The notes below the pieces were generated by a model, which searched no databases, was not told where the DNA came from, and saw only the letters and a list, made by a program, of their open reading frames with translations. A DNA stretch of 64,000 nucleotides from a virus: the IMG/VR virus record IMGVR_UViG_3300046170_000470, one strand, 5' to 3'. The number at the start of each line of letters is the position of its first letter. The first letter of the stretch is position 1. Positions 13,943-62,789 of the stretch are shown here, piece by piece. A program made the translations under genes and the position numbers.

Positions 13943-14155
13943 ATGGAAGCAATAAAACGGGGAAATGGATGGTATTATAAAGATGATAGTCCACCAAAAT
14001 CAAACTATAAAATCCAAATTACACCACTTGATAAGTCTCAAGAACAATATGTGATGAAAATAGAGACACATGATATAGAATGGTCAATGGAGCAGTACCA
14101 GAGAAATAGAGGACAATTTGAATGGGAAATGATGGATTGGAACATCCAAGTATAA
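13943..14155 (+). CDS. hypothetical protein
   Basis: ORF track; similar to the next ORF. Confidence 0.6.
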   Translation: MEAIKRGNGWYYKDDSPPKSNYKIQITPLDKSQEQYVMKIETHDIEWSMEQYQRNRGQFEWEMMDWNIQV

Positions 14156-14499
14156 AAATAAATAATATGAAAAAGTGGTACACAATTAAAGTTACACCCC
14201 TTGAAGAAGGTAAAAGTGATCAAACATTTAAAATTGAGACATCTAATTTGGATCAAACAATGGACAAATATACTCGTGATAAAGGAAGGTACAATAACGG
14301 CACTATGGGAGATAGTAAGACGTTAAACAAATACCAATTCAGGTTTAAGAATAAGGTATACGAGTGTATAGGTGAAGATAGGGATTGGCAAATTGTCCAG
14401 TTTAAATTTGCAATAAAAGATAAACAATGGCTAACGGTCAGTAATCGAATAATAAATCAATTGAAATGGGGTCCACTAATAAAGGAGATAAAGACATAA
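14122..14499 (+). CDS. hypothetical protein (start probably MKKW near 14167)
   Basis: ORF track. Confidence 0.5.
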   Translation: MGNDGLEHPSIKINNMKKWYTIKVTPLEEGKSDQTFKIETSNLDQTMDKYTRDKGRYNNGTMGDSKTLNKYQFRFKNKVYECIGEDRDWQIVQFKFAIKDKQWLTVSNRIINQLKWGPLIKEIKT

Positions 14500-14810
14500 A
14501 TCATTGTGTATGGTGTGGAGCCTTAACTCCAATGGAGCAAATGCAATTGCCGTCTACACCTATTTTGGAGCATATGGAGGAGAAAATTGATAAAATGGGA
14601 CGTAAACGAATATGGGGTGATAATTCGGATTGGAGTAAGGTTAATATGGATAGTGATTTGGAGGCCGAATTGCTAGTGTATGATGAGATGTTGGCTACTA
14701 TAGAACTTAAAACAGTGTGTGAGCGATGTATAGAGGAGGATGAACGGCTATGGAAGAAATATTACGGTAATCCAGACGATATAGATATATTCTGGGACGA
14801 CGTATTTTAA
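14466..14810 (+). CDS. hypothetical protein with CxxC…CxxC
   Basis: HCVWCG and VCERC. Confidence 0.55.
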   Translation: MGSTNKGDKDINHCVWCGALTPMEQMQLPSTPILEHMEEKIDKMGRKRIWGDNSDWSKVNMDSDLEAELLVYDEMLATIELKTVCERCIEEDERLWKKYYGNPDDIDIFWDDVF

Positions 14811-14813
14811 AAG

Positions 14814-15074
14814 ATGGTTGTATGTAGTCGATGTGGGGAATTAATTGAATCGGGATGGGATTATAGGTGGCATTTTGATAAACATTTGGATGAATTTGAT
14901 AATGCTGAGGATAAACAAAAGTATATAAATGAAACAACGCAAATTATGAGCAGTAAATTTTTTAGTAATAAGAACGATAATAAAACGGATAAACGGGGTA
15001 AGAAAGTAACCAATAAGGGTAAACAAGTACACAATAAGAATATTGGTGTTAAGAAATCTGGACGGGGTAAGTAA
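14814..15074 (+). CDS. small C2H2-like zinc-finger protein
   Basis: CSRC…HFDKH and a basic tail. Confidence 0.5.
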   Translation: MVVCSRCGELIESGWDYRWHFDKHLDEFDNAEDKQKYINETTQIMSSKFFSNKNDNKTDKRGKKVTNKGKQVHNKNIGVKKSGRGK

Positions 15075-15221
15075 ATAATTAAACAATAAATAACATGAGT
15101 AGAAACAGTAACAAACAATTGTACACGCAAACGATGGAGTGGGTGGGTACATTAAAGCAACAACGTAAAAGACGTAGTAAACAAGGTAATTCGCGAATGG
15201 ATTATATGAAACAAAAACGTA

Positions 15222-15332
15222 ATGGCTAAACGTAATAAATTAAAATCGGTTACTTGGATAACCATAGGTGCCATTACTATATTGATTTGGGTAGGGGTCT
15301 ACAATTTGGTGTGGCCATGGTTAGGTAGTTAA
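15222..15332 (+). CDS. membrane microprotein (36 aa)
   Basis: MAKRNKLKSVTWITIGAITILIWVGVYNLVWPWLGS. Confidence 0.45.
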   Translation: MAKRNKLKSVTWITIGAITILIWVGVYNLVWPWLGS

Positions 15333-15630
15333 CCAAGTGTGTCCAACTAGGGTACAAGCCTAACCAACGGGTAGTGATGTAACCAAATGGTGTACTGTTC
15401 TATATATAGTGTATGACCTTAACCTATGGGGTGAGTGGTCTAACCAAGGGTGGGTGTTAACCCATTTACATTGCAAGCCAAGCCTTTTCGACCTACCTTA
15501 AAATATATACGTCGAATTGCATTATTCACAATTGGCACACGTGTAGATCTTTCTTATTCACAATGGCCTGGCATTAAAAATGAGCATGTGACAAAGCCAA
15601 ATGTATTTCATAAATGTTCACAACTATAAT
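15330..15630. repeat. non-coding tract with repeated TAACC(A/T/C) and two TTATTCACA DnaA-box-like 9-mers; candidate origin
   Basis: TAACC at 15330, 15361, 15380, 15420, 15441, 15458; TTATTCACA at 15522 and 15554. Confidence 0.5.
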
Positions 15631-15640
15631 TGCATTTAAA

Positions 15641-15673
15641 TTTGGATACGTGGGATATGGTTCGTATATTTAC
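15641..15673 (+). promoter_or_regulatory. early promoter TTTGG-N19-TATATTTAC
   Basis: Exact motif and spacing. Confidence 0.8.
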
Positions 15674-15690
15674 AGGGTAAAATTAAGGTT

Positions 15691-15855
15691 ATGACAGTAA
15701 ATCCAACAGTAAATCATCATTTATTATTAGAAAACAGGTTAAATCAGTTATTACGTGATGGACATTTATCCAAAGACGTATGGAATGACTTAATCGATTG
15801 TGTTACACTACACAGGCAATTGGAATTTAAACAATTAACAGTAAATCAATTATAA
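15691..15855 (+). CDS. microprotein (54 aa)
   Basis: TAAGGTT-ATG; MTVNPTVNHHLLLENRLNQ…. Confidence 0.65.
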   Translation: MTVNPTVNHHLLLENRLNQLLRDGHLSKDVWNDLIDCVTLHRQLEFKQLTVNQL

Positions 15856-15864
15856 ATTAAGGTT

Positions 15865-16002
15865 ATGAGTTATAATAGAGGTAAAAATTATTTGAAACAG
15901 TTTAAACGACTCAAAAAAGGTCGTGTGATGAATGCATATGAGATAGCAAGTCTAAAAGCGTTTAGCGATGAGTTAAAACAATCATTCACATACAATAAAT
16001 AA
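15865..16002 (+). CDS. basic microprotein (45 aa)
   Basis: TAAGGTT-ATG; MSYNRGKNYLKQFKRLKKG…. Confidence 0.65.
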   Translation: MSYNRGKNYLKQFKRLKKGRVMNAYEIASLKAFSDELKQSFTYNK

Positions 16003-16007
16003 AGGTT

Positions 16008-16115
16008 ATGACAGATATGTTACACCACTTAGCAAGATTAGAGATGATGATGGCCGAGGAACGAGGCATTGATTTATCATACATTGAAGCATTAGAAATA
16101 GTTAAATTAAAATAA
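16008..16115 (+). CDS. microprotein (35 aa)
   Basis: TAAAGGTT-ATG; MTDMLHHLARLEMMMAEERG…. Confidence 0.65.
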   Translation: MTDMLHHLARLEMMMAEERGIDLSYIEALEIVKLK

Positions 16116-16120
16116 AGGTT

Positions 16121-16288
16121 ATGGATCAATACACACTTAAAGTTCATGTTGAACATGGTCACATTGAAAACATATGGTCGGGCAATGACATAAATGAGGC
16201 TCACCACTACGAATCCATTGGTATTAAACATTGGGGCAAGGACAATGTCTGGATATGTGATAACATCCAGGAAATCACCGTCGGGTAA
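16121..16288 (+). CDS. microprotein (55 aa)
   Basis: TAAAGGTT-ATG; MDQYTLKVHVEHGHIENIWSG…. Confidence 0.65.
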   Translation: MDQYTLKVHVEHGHIENIWSGNDINEAHHYESIGIKHWGKDNVWICDNIQEITVG

Positions 16289-16312
16289 AATTACATTAAT
16301 CATTTATTACAA

Positions 16313-16545
16313 CGAGGGTACTCCCAGTGGGGGGTGCCCCGTACCCCTATACCGCGTTGGGCATGCCGCCGGCCGTACGTGGGGGGTATGTATGTAATAC
16401 CACGCGCGTTGATATCCATATGGCGTGTATATGTGAAGGAAAGGGTGTAGGGTATCATATGAAGCTCCTACGGTCTTCTACCCTCGGGTTGTATATACAA
16501 ATATATATCAAAATATATAAGGGGCCCCATTGGGACCCCTTTTTT
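16313..16545 (+). ncRNA. GC-rich multi-hairpin element: candidate structured ncRNA or terminus/packaging site
   Basis: Four predicted stems, the first two relying on G-U pairs, in a GC island inside an AT-rich genome. Confidence 0.4.
16519..16545. terminator. probable bidirectional terminator between convergent units
   Basis: GGGGCCCCA-T-TGGGACCCC followed by T6; AT-rich on the other flank. Confidence 0.65.
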
Positions 16546-16625
16546 CCATTTAACACCAAATTTTAAAAAACACAAAAATGGCAACCTTCTTTTTTCAAAA
16601 ACCTTTTGGTGTCGAGGAAAATATA

Positions 16626-17363
16626 TTAGTTTTCAAACAAATATGTTACTTCATCTTGAGTTATTGCTCTATCCCATACTCCAATATCATCTAATTTACC
16701 ATTAAATGAATCCCATAAAGGGTGATTCATCATCCCAAAAGCTACCTTACCAGATAAAGAAGGAATACCTAGAGTTTTTTGCTCTTCTATTAATACTCCA
16801 TCAAGGTATAACTTAGTTATTGTATCCCCAACCGAGTATACTATATGATGCCAATTATTAGATTGGAGAGATAATTCTACTATATTAACAGTTCTATCAT
16901 CATATATGTTACCTATACTTGGTGTACCTTCATTGGGCCATGTAAATCCTAACTGCCCCGGACCATCATTCCCCCAAAACTCCAGGACTCTAGGGTTAAT
17001 AGAACCATTACCTTCTCTATATACCCATAAAGATATTGTATATATTGATACAGATTCGGTATTTATATCTACTTTTATGAAATTGGTGTTTTTTACACCA
17101 CTAAAATATACACTTTTGTCTTCAACCCCATTTCTATCTTGAGTTAAAATAGAGGTATCTTCAATAGGGTGGTTCTCATTCCCGCTCTCATCTAAACTAT
17201 TACCATTAAAAGGATACCAGGCAATTAAACCCTCTTTAGGGAATGAATCACAAACACAATCACACTCAACTTCAACTTGTTCAATTACCTCTATATATTC
17301 GATGTGGTCTTCACACCCCAATAAAAATAAAACACTTAAAAATAACCATTTTTTCATAACCAA
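16626..17363 (-). CDS. LamG/concanavalin-A-like jellyroll lipoprotein
   Basis: MKKWLFLSVLFLLGC lipobox; GLIAWYPFNGNSLDESGN, TISLWV, WHHIV, LYLDG, FNGKLDDIGVWDRA. Confidence 0.85.
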   Translation of the reverse strand: MVMKKWLFLSVLFLLGCEDHIEYIEVIEQVEVECDCVCDSFPKEGLIAWYPFNGNSLDESGNENHPIEDTSILTQDRNGVEDKSVYFSGVKNTNFIKVDINTESVSIYTISLWVYREGNGSINPRVLEFWGNDGPGQLGFTWPNEGTPSIGNIYDDRTVNIVELSLQSNNWHHIVYSVGDTITKLYLDGVLIEEQKTLGIPSLSGKVAFGMMNHPLWDSFNGKLDDIGVWDRAITQDEVTYLFEN

Positions 17364-17372
17364 AGTTTAAAA

Positions 17373-17780
17373 TTAATATCTACTTAACATATTTGGATCT
17401 TGACCCAAGGTTTTTATATTTTGTTTCAATTGCGTTATTTCATTAAATGCGTCCGTAACATTTTTATTAAACACTTTATTCGATTGTTGTATTTTATTTA
17501 AATTTTCATACGCTACCGCATCTAATTCTTTTATACGCTTATTAATACTACTCAGACTCTCATACTGATCCCTCTCCATACTCGACTGAATATCCATTAT
17601 CAATGTTTTTATATCTTCTATCTCCTCCCTAAGATCTGCTCTTCGGGCAGAGGAGATATGAGATGATTTATTGAACGAGCTCAGTAATTCCGTATGTGAA
17701 GATTTTACCGAACGTAATAGCTTAACCCCATATAATACTCCTACCGATAGTACTCCACCTATAAAATATAATAATTCCAT
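17373..17780 (-). CDS. membrane-anchored coiled-coil protein
   Basis: N-terminal TM and heptad pattern; has its own promoter. Confidence 0.7.
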   Translation of the reverse strand: MELLYFIGGVLSVGVLYGVKLLRSVKSSHTELLSSFNKSSHISSARRADLREEIEDIKTLIMDIQSSMERDQYESLSSINKRIKELDAVAYENLNKIQQSNKVFNKNVTDAFNEITQLKQNIKTLGQDPNMLSRY

Positions 17781-17834
17781 ATAACATTAATTTAGCTAAG
17801 GTGAGCTACCTAATGCTTCACCCTTTTTATTCAC

Positions 17835-17867
17835 ATCAATATACGAATTTTAAATTAACCTTCCTAG
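17835..17867 (-). promoter_or_regulatory. early-type promoter variant CTAGG-N19-TATATTGAT
   Basis: Same spacing and TTCGTATATT core, pointing at the 17780 start. Confidence 0.6.
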
Positions 17868-17902
17868 TTATTTTTAATTCTTCTATTAAACCTAATAATT
17901 TG

Positions 17903-17987
17903 CGGAGAAAGAGGGATTCGAACCCCCGGAGGTGTGACCCTCAACAGTTTTCAAGACTGCCGCATTCGACCACTCTGCCATTTCTCC
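17903..17987 (-). tRNA. tRNA-Ser(TGA)
   Basis: GGAGAAA acceptor, TGGCAGAGTGG D-arm, GCAGT-CTTGAAA-ACTGT anticodon arm, long variable arm, GGTTCGAATCC. Confidence 0.95.
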
Positions 17988-17994
17988 AATTGGG

Positions 17995-18027
17995 TTGAAT
18001 ATACAAATAGTATTTTAGGTACCCACG
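17995..18027 (-). promoter_or_regulatory. early-type promoter variant CGTGG-N19-TATATTCAA for tRNA-Ser
   Basis: Same spacing; ends 7 nt before the tRNA 5' end. Confidence 0.5.
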
Positions 18028-18103
18028 CAATTTTTTATATCCTATAATATATACGTATAGATAGATGTGGGTATGTAAGAGAGAAAGAGTCGTTTTTTTC
18101 TAT

Positions 18104-18113
18104 ATATTTATAA
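18104..18113 (+). promoter_or_regulatory. late-type promoter motif ATATTTATAA
   Basis: 11 nt before ATG 18125. Confidence 0.6.
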
Positions 18114-18124
18114 TAAAATTAAAA

Positions 18125-18469
18125 ATGGCGTCATATACTGCTAATCAACTTTACGGTTCTGGAACTTATGCTGAGGCATTAAATGGAACTAAAACATTTC
18201 AATTTACTAATCCCTCTAATGGTTCTGCTTATTTTATACTTGAAGCAGTAAGAAATGAATTAGGTTTTTATGATTCAACTTCTAATACTGTTGCTAGTGC
18301 TTCCTATTCTTTAGGGAGTGGAATTAGTGGTTTAGTAACTTCTTCGTACATTGCTGGGGTAGCTATTGAACCCGGGGTTCATTCTATGTCTATAACTTTT
18401 GAAAATAACACTCCTATTAGTGGGTCTATCTTAAGAACCACAGGGGAAATTTCTCTTATAATTTCCTAA
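18125..18469 (+). CDS. Ser/Thr/Gly-rich protein, probably structural
   Basis: MASYTANQLYGSG…; late motif upstream; composition like the tail proteins. Confidence 0.65.
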   Translation: MASYTANQLYGSGTYAEALNGTKTFQFTNPSNGSAYFILEAVRNELGFYDSTSNTVASASYSLGSGISGLVTSSYIAGVAIEPGVHSMSITFENNTPISGSILRTTGEISLIIS

Positions 18470-18486
18470 AAGTAATGCGCCGGAGG

Positions 18487-18519
18487 TTTGGCTACCCGGG
18501 ATATCATTCGTATATTTAC
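18487..18519 (+). promoter_or_regulatory. early promoter TTTGG-N19-TATATTTAC
   Basis: Exact motif and spacing. Confidence 0.8.
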
Positions 18520-18562
18520 CATGTTGTGATAATGAAGTTGCAACACTAATTAAATAAAGGTT

Positions 18563-18892
18563 ATGACAAGTACAGATGTTAAAAATTTCAGAAGTGATTT
18601 TCAAAATGCAGTTACAGAATTGCAAAAAAAGTATGGTGTTAATATTAGCACAGGTACTATCCGTTATTCAGATAGTGAATTAAGATTTAAAGTTACCGCT
18701 CGTAAAGGTAAAGTTACCCCTAAATTAACAAAAGAAGCTTTTCAAGTAGGTGATAAAGTTAAAATTAACCATAAAAGTGCCAATGGTAAAGAATGGTTAG
18801 TAGAAAAAATCATGTCTAAAAATATTAGAGTTTCAGAAATAGGTGGTTTTGGTATGGTTAGAGTTTCACCAAGTTTATTAGAAAAGCTTTAA
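18563..18892 (+). CDS. hypothetical protein with C-terminal SH3/KOW-like beta barrel
   Basis: FQVGDKVKI…VEKI…IRV; TAAAGGTT-ATG leader. Confidence 0.65.
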   Translation: MTSTDVKNFRSDFQNAVTELQKKYGVNISTGTIRYSDSELRFKVTARKGKVTPKLTKEAFQVGDKVKINHKSANGKEWLVEKIMSKNIRVSEIGGFGMVRVSPSLLEKL

Positions 18893-18909
18893 AAGTAATG
18901 CACGGGAAG

Positions 18910-18943
18910 CTTGGCTTCCCAGGCAGCCCTTTCGTATATTTAC
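18910..18943 (+). promoter_or_regulatory. early promoter CTTGG-N20-TATATTTAC inside hairpin GGGAAGC-TTG-GCTTCCC
   Basis: Motif match. Confidence 0.75.
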
Positions 18944-18993
18944 GTGTTCGAATGTTTCGAGCTATTAAAATTAATTAAATTAAAATAAAAGTT

Positions 18994-19797
18994 ATGTTAG
19001 ATTACACAAGTTCAAATTTCAAAAGTTTAGAAGAGTTAAAAGAAATCGCTCCTAGTATTTTTACTACAAAGGGTGCAGAAAGTACTTCAGATAAGTACAC
19101 ACACATTCCTACTGATCGGGTTATTCAAGATATGGAGTTACTAGGTTGGAAAGTTGTTGATGCTAAAGAGGTTAAAGCCCGTGAAAATGTTGGTTTCCAA
19201 AAGCATTTAGTTGTATTTAGAAATCCTGATGTTGTTATTAATGGTGAAGATGGTGATACTGTTTACCCACAAGTATTACTTACCAATTCTCATGATGGTA
19301 AAAATTCATTTACCTTTACTGCAGGTTTATTTAGAATGATTTGTGAAAATGGATTAGTTGTTGCTGATACTAAGTTTGAAGATTTTAAAGTTAAACATAT
19401 GGGTTATGATTTTGAAACACTTCAGGATACAATTAAAGAAATTATTGGTAATCTTGATTTAACTGTTGAATCAATGAATAAAATGAAAGAAACAGAGCTT
19501 AATGAAGAACAAATGTTTAATTTAGCTAAATCGTTTCTTGATATGAGAGTTGAAGGTACAAATAATACCTATGCTAAGGATGCAATTCAGGAAGTTTTAG
19601 ATCCTCAACGTTCAGAAGATATGGGGAATGGATTATGGGAAGTATTTAATCGTGTTCAAGAGAACATTATGGAAGGTAATTTTGAATACCTTACAGTTAA
19701 AGGAAAACCACGTCAAGCTCGAATTATCAAAAATTTCAAGCAAGATCAGGATTTGAATAAGAAAATGTTTAGTAAAGCATTAGAGTTTGTAGCATAA
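18994..19797 (+). CDS. DUF932/DUF945 family protein
   Basis: APSIF, SDKYTHIPT, NSHDG, AGLFRMICENGLV, LWEVFNRVQEN. Confidence 0.88.
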   Translation: MLDYTSSNFKSLEELKEIAPSIFTTKGAESTSDKYTHIPTDRVIQDMELLGWKVVDAKEVKARENVGFQKHLVVFRNPDVVINGEDGDTVYPQVLLTNSHDGKNSFTFTAGLFRMICENGLVVADTKFEDFKVKHMGYDFETLQDTIKEIIGNLDLTVESMNKMKETELNEEQMFNLAKSFLDMRVEGTNNTYAKDAIQEVLDPQRSEDMGNGLWEVFNRVQENIMEGNFEYLTVKGKPRQARIIKNFKQDQDLNKKMFSKALEFVA

Positions 19798-24529: not shown

Positions 24530-24544
24530 ACCTTCTTTATATCA

Positions 24545-24554
24545 ATATTTATAA
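24545..24554 (+). promoter_or_regulatory. late promoter motif ATATTTATAA
   Basis: 10 nt before ATG 24565. Confidence 0.7.
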
Positions 24555-24564
24555 CCAAAATATT

Positions 24565-24924
24565 ATGGGAGCATTAGACAATGTGGTATTCGGAAAGAAA
24601 AAATTCTCGGATATTCTTAATGAAATTTACGATAACCAGAAAAGAAAAGAAAAACAAATTACTGGTTTAATCTCTGAACTTAAACCACTTATTAATGATA
24701 TAGGTGATGCTACTTTGATCGTTCCACTTATTAAAGAATATATGGAAATTGGCGTTCGTAACGATGAACAATTAATTAAAATGGCAACTATAATACAGCG
24801 TGCGCTTAATAATAGTTCTAGTGAAGATACATTAGGTATAACGGATGAAGAAAAAGCTGAATTAATGGCTGAGTTAGATAAGCTTAATAAGAACTTCGAA
24901 GAAAAAGATGGCAACAACAAGTAA
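24565..24924 (+). CDS. hypothetical helical protein
   Basis: ORF track. Confidence 0.7.
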   Translation: MGALDNVVFGKKKFSDILNEIYDNQKRKEKQITGLISELKPLINDIGDATLIVPLIKEYMEIGVRNDEQLIKMATIIQRALNNSSSEDTLGITDEEKAELMAELDKLNKNFEEKDGNNK

Positions 24925-27929: not shown

Positions 27930-28337
27930 ATGGCATTTGGAGCAAAACAGATATTTCCTAATGATACCAGAGCACGTGTAGCTATTGGTGTTAATTTACC
28001 ATTAAATGGTAATGCTGTATTTGACTCTAATTACCAAACAAAAGATTCTATTAAAAGTAACTTAATAAATTATTTTTTAACCAACCCAGGGGAAAGAAAT
28101 GGGAATCCTACTTTTGGAGCAGGACTTAAAAATTTTTTATTTGAACAAATAACCCAGGACAATTTAGATTTTTTAGAAGAAAATATTCAAGAAAAATTAA
28201 AAAATTATTTTCCTAATATAGATGTAGAAGATGTTGAATTAACTTCTAACCAAGATTTAAACAAAATAACAATATCTATTTCATACTCAATATCTAATAC
28301 GGGTATAAATGATAATTTAGAATTAAGCTTTGCATAA
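27930..28337 (+). CDS. baseplate wedge subunit, GPW/gp25 family
   Basis: IKSNLINYFLTNPGER…PTFGAGLKNFLFE. Confidence 0.9.
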   Translation: MAFGAKQIFPNDTRARVAIGVNLPLNGNAVFDSNYQTKDSIKSNLINYFLTNPGERNGNPTFGAGLKNFLFEQITQDNLDFLEENIQEKLKNYFPNIDVEDVELTSNQDLNKITISISYSISNTGINDNLELSFA

Positions 28338-57613: not shown

Positions 57614-57641
57614 TTTTTTAATAAACTGAAATAAAAACTTA

Positions 57642-57651
57642 ATATTTATAA
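57642..57651 (+). promoter_or_regulatory. late promoter motif ATATTTATAA
   Basis: Intergenic. Confidence 0.7.
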
Positions 57652-57669
57652 TAAAACACAACGTAAAAA

Positions 57670-60011: not shown

Positions 60012-62789
<2,778 letters not shown>

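Follow-up and report, generated by a model that had tools for sequence, protein, structure and literature searches.

A new RNA motif and an unexplained conserved cis-element between convergent genes in a clade of uncultured marine myophages

Introduction

The IMG/VR virus record IMGVR_UViG_3300046170_000470, of which a stretch of 64,000 nucleotides (nt) was analyzed in this work (referred to as the window), contains at positions 16313-16545 a GC-rich and self-complementary island, and the question raised by this locus is what kind of element the island represents. A preliminary description, prepared from the nucleotide sequence alone, proposed that it encodes a novel structured noncoding RNA (ncRNA) on the rightward (plus) strand or, alternatively, that it marks a packaging site or a terminus of the genome. 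We report here that an undescribed structured RNA does exist at this locus, but that it is encoded by the opposite strand, at 16629-16514, and lies mostly outside the island. The island itself consists largely of a hypervariable tandem-repeat array and an adjoining core, which is conserved in its sequence and not in its structure. The locus as a whole is thus a new RNA motif accompanied by an unexplained conserved cis-element, and it belongs to a clade of uncultured phages.

Results

A covarying structured RNA is encoded on the leftward strand

Relatives of the locus were collected in two ways. The DUF932 gene located at 18994-19797 was used as an anchor and gave 80 IMG/VR loci, against which the region 14000-19000 of the window was compared by BLAST; no relatives were recovered when the Laminin_G protein encoded next to the island served as the anchor. 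In addition, a degenerate pattern of the core matched 28 IMG/VR loci and at least 120 metagenome loci, nearly all of them marine or Baltic. The module described below is common to more than 100 phage contigs from uncultured marine viromes and metagenomes.

The conserved block of 80 nt that follows the GC-rich hairpin at the right edge of the island contains a long-range inverted repeat, the sequence of which varies between lineages while its pairing is kept (the variants of the paired segments are ACGCC/GGCGU, ACACU/AGUGU, UACCCA/UGGGUA, GGCGA/UCGCC and GACGCCC/GGGCGUC). Read on the minus strand, it folds into a rod ending in a small apical hairpin, and the apical GGUUGCCAUU is invariant. The copy present in the window (16629-16514, minus strand) has a folding energy of -38.5 kcal/mol and a z score of -4.49, with none of 200 shuffled sequences being as good. 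For the minus strand of the aligned relatives, RNAalifold predicted the stem together with the GC hairpin at -10.3 kcal/mol, with compensatory changes in 9 of 11 pairs. This RNA overlaps the island only in the hairpin that the preliminary description had called a terminator.

Covariation was assessed in two alignments. The first (A2) was made with MAFFT from 58 sequences and carries a structure of 21 pairs; 85.3% of its cells were paired, against 79.2% in shuffled alignments, and in the control with slid partners the pairing peaked at zero displacement. Both sides had changed in 17 of the 21 pairs (9.3 in shuffles), and 67 compensatory cells were counted, compared to 19.5 expected from the shuffles. 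The second alignment (A5) comprises 74 cmsearch hits, 65 of them distinct, with 18 pairs. The paired fraction reached 91.8% against 82.3% in shuffles, a percentage inflated by the fitting of A5 to the model, and slid partners gave at most 63%, with a sharp peak at zero. Changes on both sides were found in 16 of the 18 pairs, and compensatory cells numbered 78 against 14.9. In either alignment, none of 500 shuffles reached the observed value of any of the five measures used.

The strand could be assigned because G-U cells greatly exceed A-C cells when the alignment is read in the minus orientation (127 vs 26). A covariance model built from the motif, R1, found one match per locus, always on the strand opposite to DUF932; its score of 122.8 bits for the window should be read with the window being part of the seed. 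No hit below an E value of 0.03 was produced by R1 in Flavobacterium phage immuto, Microcystis phage Mel-JY01, a 484-kb uncultured phage or a complete 166-kb relative. The motif is also linked to particular genes: the nearest leftward gene upstream of the RNA was a homologue of the 135-amino-acid (aa) gene of the window in 49 of 62 distinct loci and a Laminin_G gene in 12, the two together accounting for 61. Covariation, strand and linkage establish that the leftward strand holds a real structured RNA. It had no match in Rfam and belongs to no described family, which makes it a new RNA motif.

The GC hairpin (16519-16545) has the form of an intrinsic terminator in both directions of reading. 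The terminator scan placed it at 16541-16519 on the minus strand, with 10 pairs, 7 of them G-C. On the plus strand the same stem is followed by TTTTTT, and on the minus strand an A-run precedes it; in the leftward RNA this A-run forms the 3' side of the outer stem, and it is at once the U-run of the rightward terminator. The four central pairs of the hairpin are paired in 98% of cells with compensatory changes, and in the minus orientation 39 G-U cells stand against 11 A-C cells.

The island is not the conserved fold

Most of what had been described for the island itself was reproduced. The GC content is 0.49-0.525 at 16200-16499, against 0.26-0.40 in the flanks and about 0.32 in the genome; three of the seven CGCG sequences of the window lie in the island. 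All four of the stems proposed previously can be drawn, and the 12-base-pair (bp) palindrome at 16489-16500 and a terminator-type hairpin at 16519-16545 are both present. The island follows an operon of small open reading frames (ORFs) at 15691-16288 and is faced by leftward genes, as had been stated. Neither ARAGORN nor Rfam gave a transfer RNA (tRNA), a transfer-messenger RNA (tmRNA) or a family match at the island, in agreement with the remark that no known RNA was recognized there. In the whole window only two tRNAs reached the gathering score of Rfam 15; when 16000-16900 was scanned with E values up to 10, weak hairpin-driven matches alone appeared (the best at E 0.42, with 20.6 bits against a gathering score of 100), and no tRNA or tmRNA was detected within 16313-16629 by ARAGORN or RF00005. 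An exact 24-mer of the island had no match in IMG/VR.

Conservation of the region is uneven. In about 20 of the DUF932-anchored loci, 16387-16626 was kept at 72-93% identity, on par with the neighbouring genes, and for 16313-16386 no homologue was detectable in the 80 loci beyond the closest relatives of the window. The core was studied in an alignment (A1) of 30 sequences with a mean column identity of 71%, and 114 unique cores were found overall. No consensus fold emerged from it: RNAalifold gave weak long-range A/U pairing, at -3.4 kcal/mol for the 30 sequences and -1.6 for the 114 unique ones. Stems 3 and 4, which fall within the core, consisted of standard pairs in 70.4% of cells, as compared to 70.5% in shuffles; their covariation was below the shuffle mean, the score being reached by 427 of 500 shuffles. 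In the best alternative register pairing was 86.9% against 85.5%, and its covariation was reached by 109 of 500 shuffles. The folding excess of 45 distinct cores was close to nil (mean z -0.38 for the plus and -0.13 for the minus strand). The core is conserved in sequence, not in structure.

These results bear directly on the proposal that the island is a multi-hairpin structured ncRNA of the plus strand, whose stems should covary among homologues. Some observations do speak for it. Folded alone, the plus strand of 16300-16550 has a minimum free energy of -94.6 kcal/mol and a z score of -2.33, equalled by 5 of 200 shuffles, while the minus strand has a z of -1.14. A 6-bp hairpin in the core (of the ACGCGC/GCGUGU type) is paired in 93% of cells through changes that tolerate G-U (C-G to U-G, G-U to A-U). 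Stem 1 is paired in 98.3% of cells in a subclade of 12 sequences with the architecture of the window. However, this pairing is kept mostly by one-sided G-U changes (five pairs are invariant, three changed on one side only and one on both), and the stem reads equally well at the DNA level, since it also consists of two adjacent degenerate GGGTACCC-type palindromes. In the same subclade stem 2 is paired in only 43.3% of cells, and stems 3 and 4 are, as described above, indistinguishable from shuffles. With no consensus structure in either set of cores, covariation within the range of shuffles, a core z score near zero and no Rfam match, the proposal is largely refuted already and we consider it very improbable.

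The dependence of the stems on G-U pairs had been taken as a mark of selection on the plus-strand RNA. This holds for stem 1; beyond it, only 25 of 66 distinct homologues were more stable on the plus strand than on the minus strand. For the array, the mean fold z is -1.30 on the plus and -0.69 on the minus strand, and its z was lower on the plus strand in 40 of the 66, which is a further point in favour of a plus-strand RNA. Local hairpins of the island, such as stem 1, are lineage-specific.

Translation of the island or the core was considered as well, including a frame that ends at the TAA opening the core, and rejected, as none of the frames stays open throughout the 30 sequences. In lineages that carry a paired +1/-1 indel, a stop interrupts the frame that is most often open, and column variability in the core does not differ between the three codon positions.

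Repeat structure and unit-wise variation of the array

The left part of the island is hypervariable. Its homologues are degenerate tandem repeats with an 11-nt unit containing three TAC, and are rich in TAC and GTAC. Among 66 distinct homologues the GC content averaged 42% with a maximum of 56%; GTAC occurred 193 times against 31 expected, a six-fold excess, and was present in 64 of the 66. The two strands differ markedly, with TAC outnumbering GTA (622 vs 329) and TACTT outnumbering AAGTA (100 vs 4). The distances between TAC triplets peak at 4, 7-8, 11, 15, 18, 22, 26 and 33 nt, the autocorrelation of the whole array sequence peaks at 11, 22, 33 and 44, with no such peaks in the core, and the positions of TAC relative to the core fall into three sharp phases modulo 11. 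Tandem Repeats Finder (TRF) reported 11-nt units, for example TACTTACTACA, and also 18-nt units. In the window itself the repeats are weak, and it is in the relatives that the period-11 and period-18 repeats and the (AT)n run are seen. The array is therefore described as a degenerate tandem repeat changing by whole units. The idea that GTAC is an avoided restriction site concentrated in the island was discarded, because genome-wide GTAC is not depleted (194 observed, 208 expected).

Could such a tract be no more than a neutral minisatellite, generated by slippage in an untranslated gap, with the stems as by-products of repeats that contain palindromes? Its variability between close relatives, with indels in unit lengths, would be expected of one, assemblies break at it, and insertion of small ORFs nearby in either orientation indicates that the gap tolerates change. 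Nevertheless, a neutral tract in a genome of 32% GC should drift towards AT, whereas the GC average quoted above extends over 66 lineages, and an array of the same type occupies the same place in every lineage that bears the core. We regard neutrality as an improbable explanation.

Breaks of assemblies deserve separate mention, given that a genome terminus was the alternative offered for the island. Within 700 nt of the core, 52 contig ends were located upstream and 20 downstream. This pile-up is not evidence of physical ends, because a hypervariable repeat tract breaks assemblies in the same way. About ten IMG/VR contigs of 42.6-47.6 kb, which come from different samples (L011, L012, L017, L021, L025, L028, L038, L040, L041 and L046), start at most about 3 kb from the module. 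Their length matches the interval between the island and collagen-like repeats some 45 kb away, at about 61 kb, and several contigs of 44-47 kb run from one to the other; the two sites appear to be recurrent assembly break points for this phage clade. At 60100-61800 of the window we noticed repeats with a 9-nt period (of the Gly-X-Y type), which are split into many short ORFs on both strands and whose copies differ by 1-nt indels; this looks like sequencing or assembly frameshifts within a gene for a collagen-like fibre.

A different explanation is that the array and the core constitute a site where proteins assemble on DNA, most likely a replication origin, otherwise a packaging site of the pac type or a partition-type site. 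In the origin version, a DNA-binding protein of the phage would recognize the tandem 11- and 18-nt repeats as iterons, unwinding would take place in the (AT)n run and the AT-rich flanks, and the site would be activated by early transcription running into it, in the manner of the λ and T4 origins. Several properties fit such a site: the exact 11-nt period of direct repeats with a fixed TAC phase relative to the core, the enrichment of the palindrome GTAC, the direct repeats of period 18 (about two copies each by TRF) in two relatives and up to three tandem GTGGTACT-type units discerned by eye in several others. The high GC content speaks for selection, given that the genome is AT-rich; next to the array lie a conserved CATATATAT run and the invariant TATATAC..ATAT, and the core is kept in sequence and not in fold. 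Moreover, the element occurs in a single copy and contig breaks cluster at it.

On the other hand, no initiator, helicase-loader or terminase gene was recognized among the neighbours scanned, and the genes on either side point towards the site and not away from it. The phase lock of 11 nt would also be produced by unit-length slippage of any tandem repeat, and the strong strand asymmetry, which any direct repeats would have, is uninformative in either direction. Of the related IMG/VR records, nine were checked; all are classed as linear, with no end repeats found, and eight of them are fragments of 29-85% estimated completeness. The element was absent by BLAST from the 166-kb relative, which is a genome of 100% completeness, and had no match in cultured relatives. 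Taken together, a DNA-level assembly site appears to us possible, though rather unlikely.

Organization of the module and its surroundings

The module consists of six parts, (a) to (f), which are listed in Table 1 together with the neighbouring features.

Table 1. Features of the locus and of its surroundings in the window
Feature	Coordinates	Strand	Remarks
Early-type promoter cassette	15630-15673	+	upstream of small-ORF operon; member of the 5-copy repeat family D13; putative promoter role
Small-ORF operon, four ORFs (54, 45, 35 and 55 aa)	15691-16288	+	transcript would enter the island
(a) Variable GC-enriched array	16313-16392	+	defined from alignments
Stem 1 of the preliminary description	16316-16339	+	10 bp, two G-U; also two adjacent degenerate GGGTACCC-type palindromes
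(b) Short (AT)n run	up to ~16392		3' edge of the array
(c) Conserved core, ~110 nt	16393-16505	.	ends in invariant TATATAC..ATAT; holds stems 3 and 4 and the palindrome 16489-16500
(d) Gap between core and GC hairpin			small inserted ORFs, in either orientation, in ~20 of 69 relatives
(e) GC hairpin	16519-16545	.	common to both converging transcription units
(f) Conserved 80-nt block	16546-16626
Covarying structured RNA, 116 nt	16514-16629	-	outer stem, inner stem, A/U extension, apical GGUUGCCAUU, then GC hairpin
245-aa protein with Laminin_G_3 (concanavalin-like) domain	16626-17363	-	Pfam PF13385, 3.1e-19
135-aa gene	17373-17780	-	structured RNA as its 3' tail; sole Pfam match FapA, weak, below cut-off
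tRNA-Ser (UGA)	17902-17987	-	head of the leftward module; detected by both ARAGORN and Rfam
Second copy of the 18-nt end of the core	17992-18009	+	17 of 18 nt identical to 16486-16503

The window derives from a large myovirus-like phage, whose baseplate wedge protein is 44% identical to its counterpart in Flavobacterium phage immuto. The phages that carry the module form a clade of uncultured marine myophages, and their closest cultured relative is a Flavobacterium phage. The module is present once in every related record checked (47-139 kb). Cultured phages gave no DNA-level match to the island region, and DNA searches for near and distant similarity in 50,697 phage records, with the window and a more typical relative as queries, returned no match. 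When 185,579 prokaryote genomes were scanned with the core pattern, the single match obtained was dismissed on reading as a chance one.

The convergent arrangement of genes is kept among the relatives: of 49 loci, 35 have a rightward ORF as their closest upstream neighbour and 40 have a leftward one as their closest downstream neighbour. The operon of small ORFs had no PHROG family matches, and its 55-aa ORF, considered as a conserved upstream partner of the array, was detectable in only 23 of 114 elements. BLAST of 14000-19000 showed that in most relatives no Laminin_G gene intervenes between the RNA and the 135-aa gene. Since in most relatives the conserved block thus abuts the 135-aa gene, the Laminin_G gene is an insertion in the phage of the window. 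Inspected by eye in one relative (L102), the 135-aa protein seems to have a membrane helix at its N terminus and a coiled coil after it. An insertion hot spot lies between the core and the hairpin (in relatives L087/L107, L089, L090, L096, L103 and L082/L091); several of these relatives have there a hydrophobic ORF of 38-41 aa on the leftward strand, and two have a rightward 42-aa ORF that begins right after TATATACTTATAT.

The copies of repeat family D13, a 44-nt repeat, are found at 1424, 4118, 5371, 15630 and 18476. The cassette consists of TTTGG, about 19 nt and TTCGTATATTTAC, with a stem-loop and an AAAGGTT-ATG leader after it, and a segment at 18885-18960 is listed alongside these copies. 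A similar -7-like box, TTCGTATATTGATG, precedes the 135-aa gene on the minus strand (near 17845). Tested as a general promoter motif, GTATATAC / TATATAC was not enriched in the window, and a literature search for this motif gave nothing relevant. The DUF932 gene is found with 66-100% protein identity across 156 IMG/VR stretches, far more widely than its neighbours.

The end of the core is repeated on the far side of the leftward module. This 18-nt repeat, GGGTTG(T/A)ATATACAAATA, occurs at 16486-16503 and 17992-18009 in direct orientation, and it flanks the Laminin_G gene, the 135-aa gene and tRNA-Ser. Its local alignment score of 33 was equalled by 2 of 300 shuffles and by 2 of 298 genomic windows, so that its significance is borderline (p about 0.007). 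The repeat may mark the leftward module as a cassette that was inserted or can be inverted. A paralogous relationship of the island to the whole gap at 17985-18125 was rejected, as this single repeat of borderline significance is all that they share.

Two further observations concern structural genes of the phage. A motif, TA(A/T)ATATTTATAA, is located just upstream of the starts of such genes at 24535-24560, 57640-57660 and 18100-18120, and it is probably a late promoter. Judging from its copy at 18100-18120, the true start of the gene listed from 18065 would be at about 18128.

Discussion

What, then, is the GC-rich island? The reading that we favour, holding it to be somewhat on the probable side, is that it forms the left, rapidly evolving portion of a module that is conserved, present in a single copy and devoid of ORFs. 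The island would be the 3' untranslated tail of a rightward transcript, and the other strand would provide a leftward transcript with a structured RNA at its 3' end. In such an arrangement, the early small-ORF operon would be read rightward through the array and the core, with transcription stopping at the GC hairpin and its U-run; on that strand the island would be a 3' untranslated tail. Transcription of the leftward module with the 135-aa gene would pass through the rod hairpin and would be ended at, or the transcript stabilized by, the same GC hairpin. The leftward RNA would then be a 3'-terminal element, either a small RNA derived from a 3' untranslated region (UTR) or a stabilizing or regulatory tail, and its invariant apical loop could be a contact site for another RNA or a protein. 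This reading builds on direct observations, namely the anatomy and the conservation pattern of the module, the absence of structure from both island and core, and, for the leftward RNA, its covariation and its strand.

Several points weigh against it. Transcription of both strands, the ends of the RNAs, termination at the hairpin and any function are all inferred. Many relatives have a poor U-tail after the hairpin when it is read leftward, and in about one fifth of relatives an ORF for a small membrane protein lies after the hairpin on this strand. In those phages the leftward RNA would be a 5' leader and not a terminal element, because the ORF comes after the hairpin. The GC enrichment of the array, its period of 11 bp, corresponding to a helical turn, and its GTAC palindromes fit an array for protein binding at the DNA level at least as well. 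Finally, the strongest pairing percentage comes from the alignment fitted to the model, although the plain MAFFT alignments, A2 and A3, give the same verdict.

A more specific role of the leftward RNA may be envisaged, in which it would act as a trans-acting regulator of the phage. Its apical GGUUGCCAUU, together with a U-run, would pair with AAAUGGCAAC and delay or time translation of late genes, and the array with the core would be a second control site of the same switch, at the DNA or RNA level. Translation of late genes could be timed or held back in this way because the RNA would come from an early-type module. The apical loop is indeed antisense to AAAUGGCAAC at the start of three structural ORFs, at 24908, 28337 (baseplate wedge) and 57991; these matches, of 8-10 nt, do not exceed chance, and a 15-mer of the loop found no target in the window beyond chance. 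We give this scenario little credence. As a separate observation, several structural genes (those at 24908, 28337 and 57991, and also at 27930 and 30177) begin with ATGGCAAC or ATGGCA (Met-Ala-Thr), to which the apical loop is exactly complementary.

Whichever function is assigned to it, the leftward RNA is now represented by a covariance model, R1, of a 116-nt motif, of which samples from the ocean and the Baltic contain no fewer than 65 distinct sequences, and it is tied to one gene module. To our knowledge, few structured RNAs from phages of marine Bacteroidota have been reported, and classical Shine-Dalgarno and Hfq systems are, as far as we know, largely lacking in Bacteroidota hosts. The GC island, which is not the conserved fold, presents a hypervariable array with an 11-nt period beside a core conserved in sequence, and this combination is a candidate cis-acting site, either origin-like or a regulatory 3' tail. 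The array also explains why metagenome assemblies of these phages recurrently break at the module.

Among known systems, the repetitive extragenic palindromic (REP) sequences of enterobacteria and the bacterial interspersed mosaic elements (BIMEs) that they build resemble the island in being GC-rich imperfect palindromes placed between convergent genes, in gaps at the 3' ends of operons. Hundreds of dispersed copies are typical of REP elements, whereas the element described here is single, with no other copy in the 64-kb window and one per related record, and the comparison fails. In the pac site of phage P1, short repeats flank the cleavage region. Clusters of short motifs beside a conserved stretch of about 100 bp are shared with our array and core; however, no terminase gene was recognized next to them among the neighbours scanned.

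Iteron-containing origins, such as the λ origin and those of plasmids, and the short-repeat centromere parC of plasmid R1, with its 11-bp repeats, come to mind when the tandem repeats of 11 and 18 nt are considered. These vary between relatives, adjoin AT-rich DNA and the core, and occur as one array per genome. Unlike in the known systems, no cognate initiator or partition gene lies near the array, and its repeats match one another far less closely than those of classical iterons. The likeness to iterons or short-repeat centromeres is one of form only.

The GC hairpin is comparable to a bidirectional intrinsic terminator: a GC-rich stem of 7-10 pairs stands between an A-run and a T-run, and occupies a conserved point of convergence. 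It differs from such terminators in being built into a larger conserved fold, and in the weak leftward U-tail mentioned above. The leftward RNA, for which we know of no described equivalents in phages of the Bacteroidota type, is best compared to small RNAs derived from 3' UTRs and to structured 3' tails of bacterial and phage operons, for which CpxQ and SroC provide examples. Unlike these, it has no Rfam family match; like them, it immediately follows the final gene of its module, has the GC hairpin of that module at its end and exposes a highly conserved sequence of the type used as a seed or contact site.

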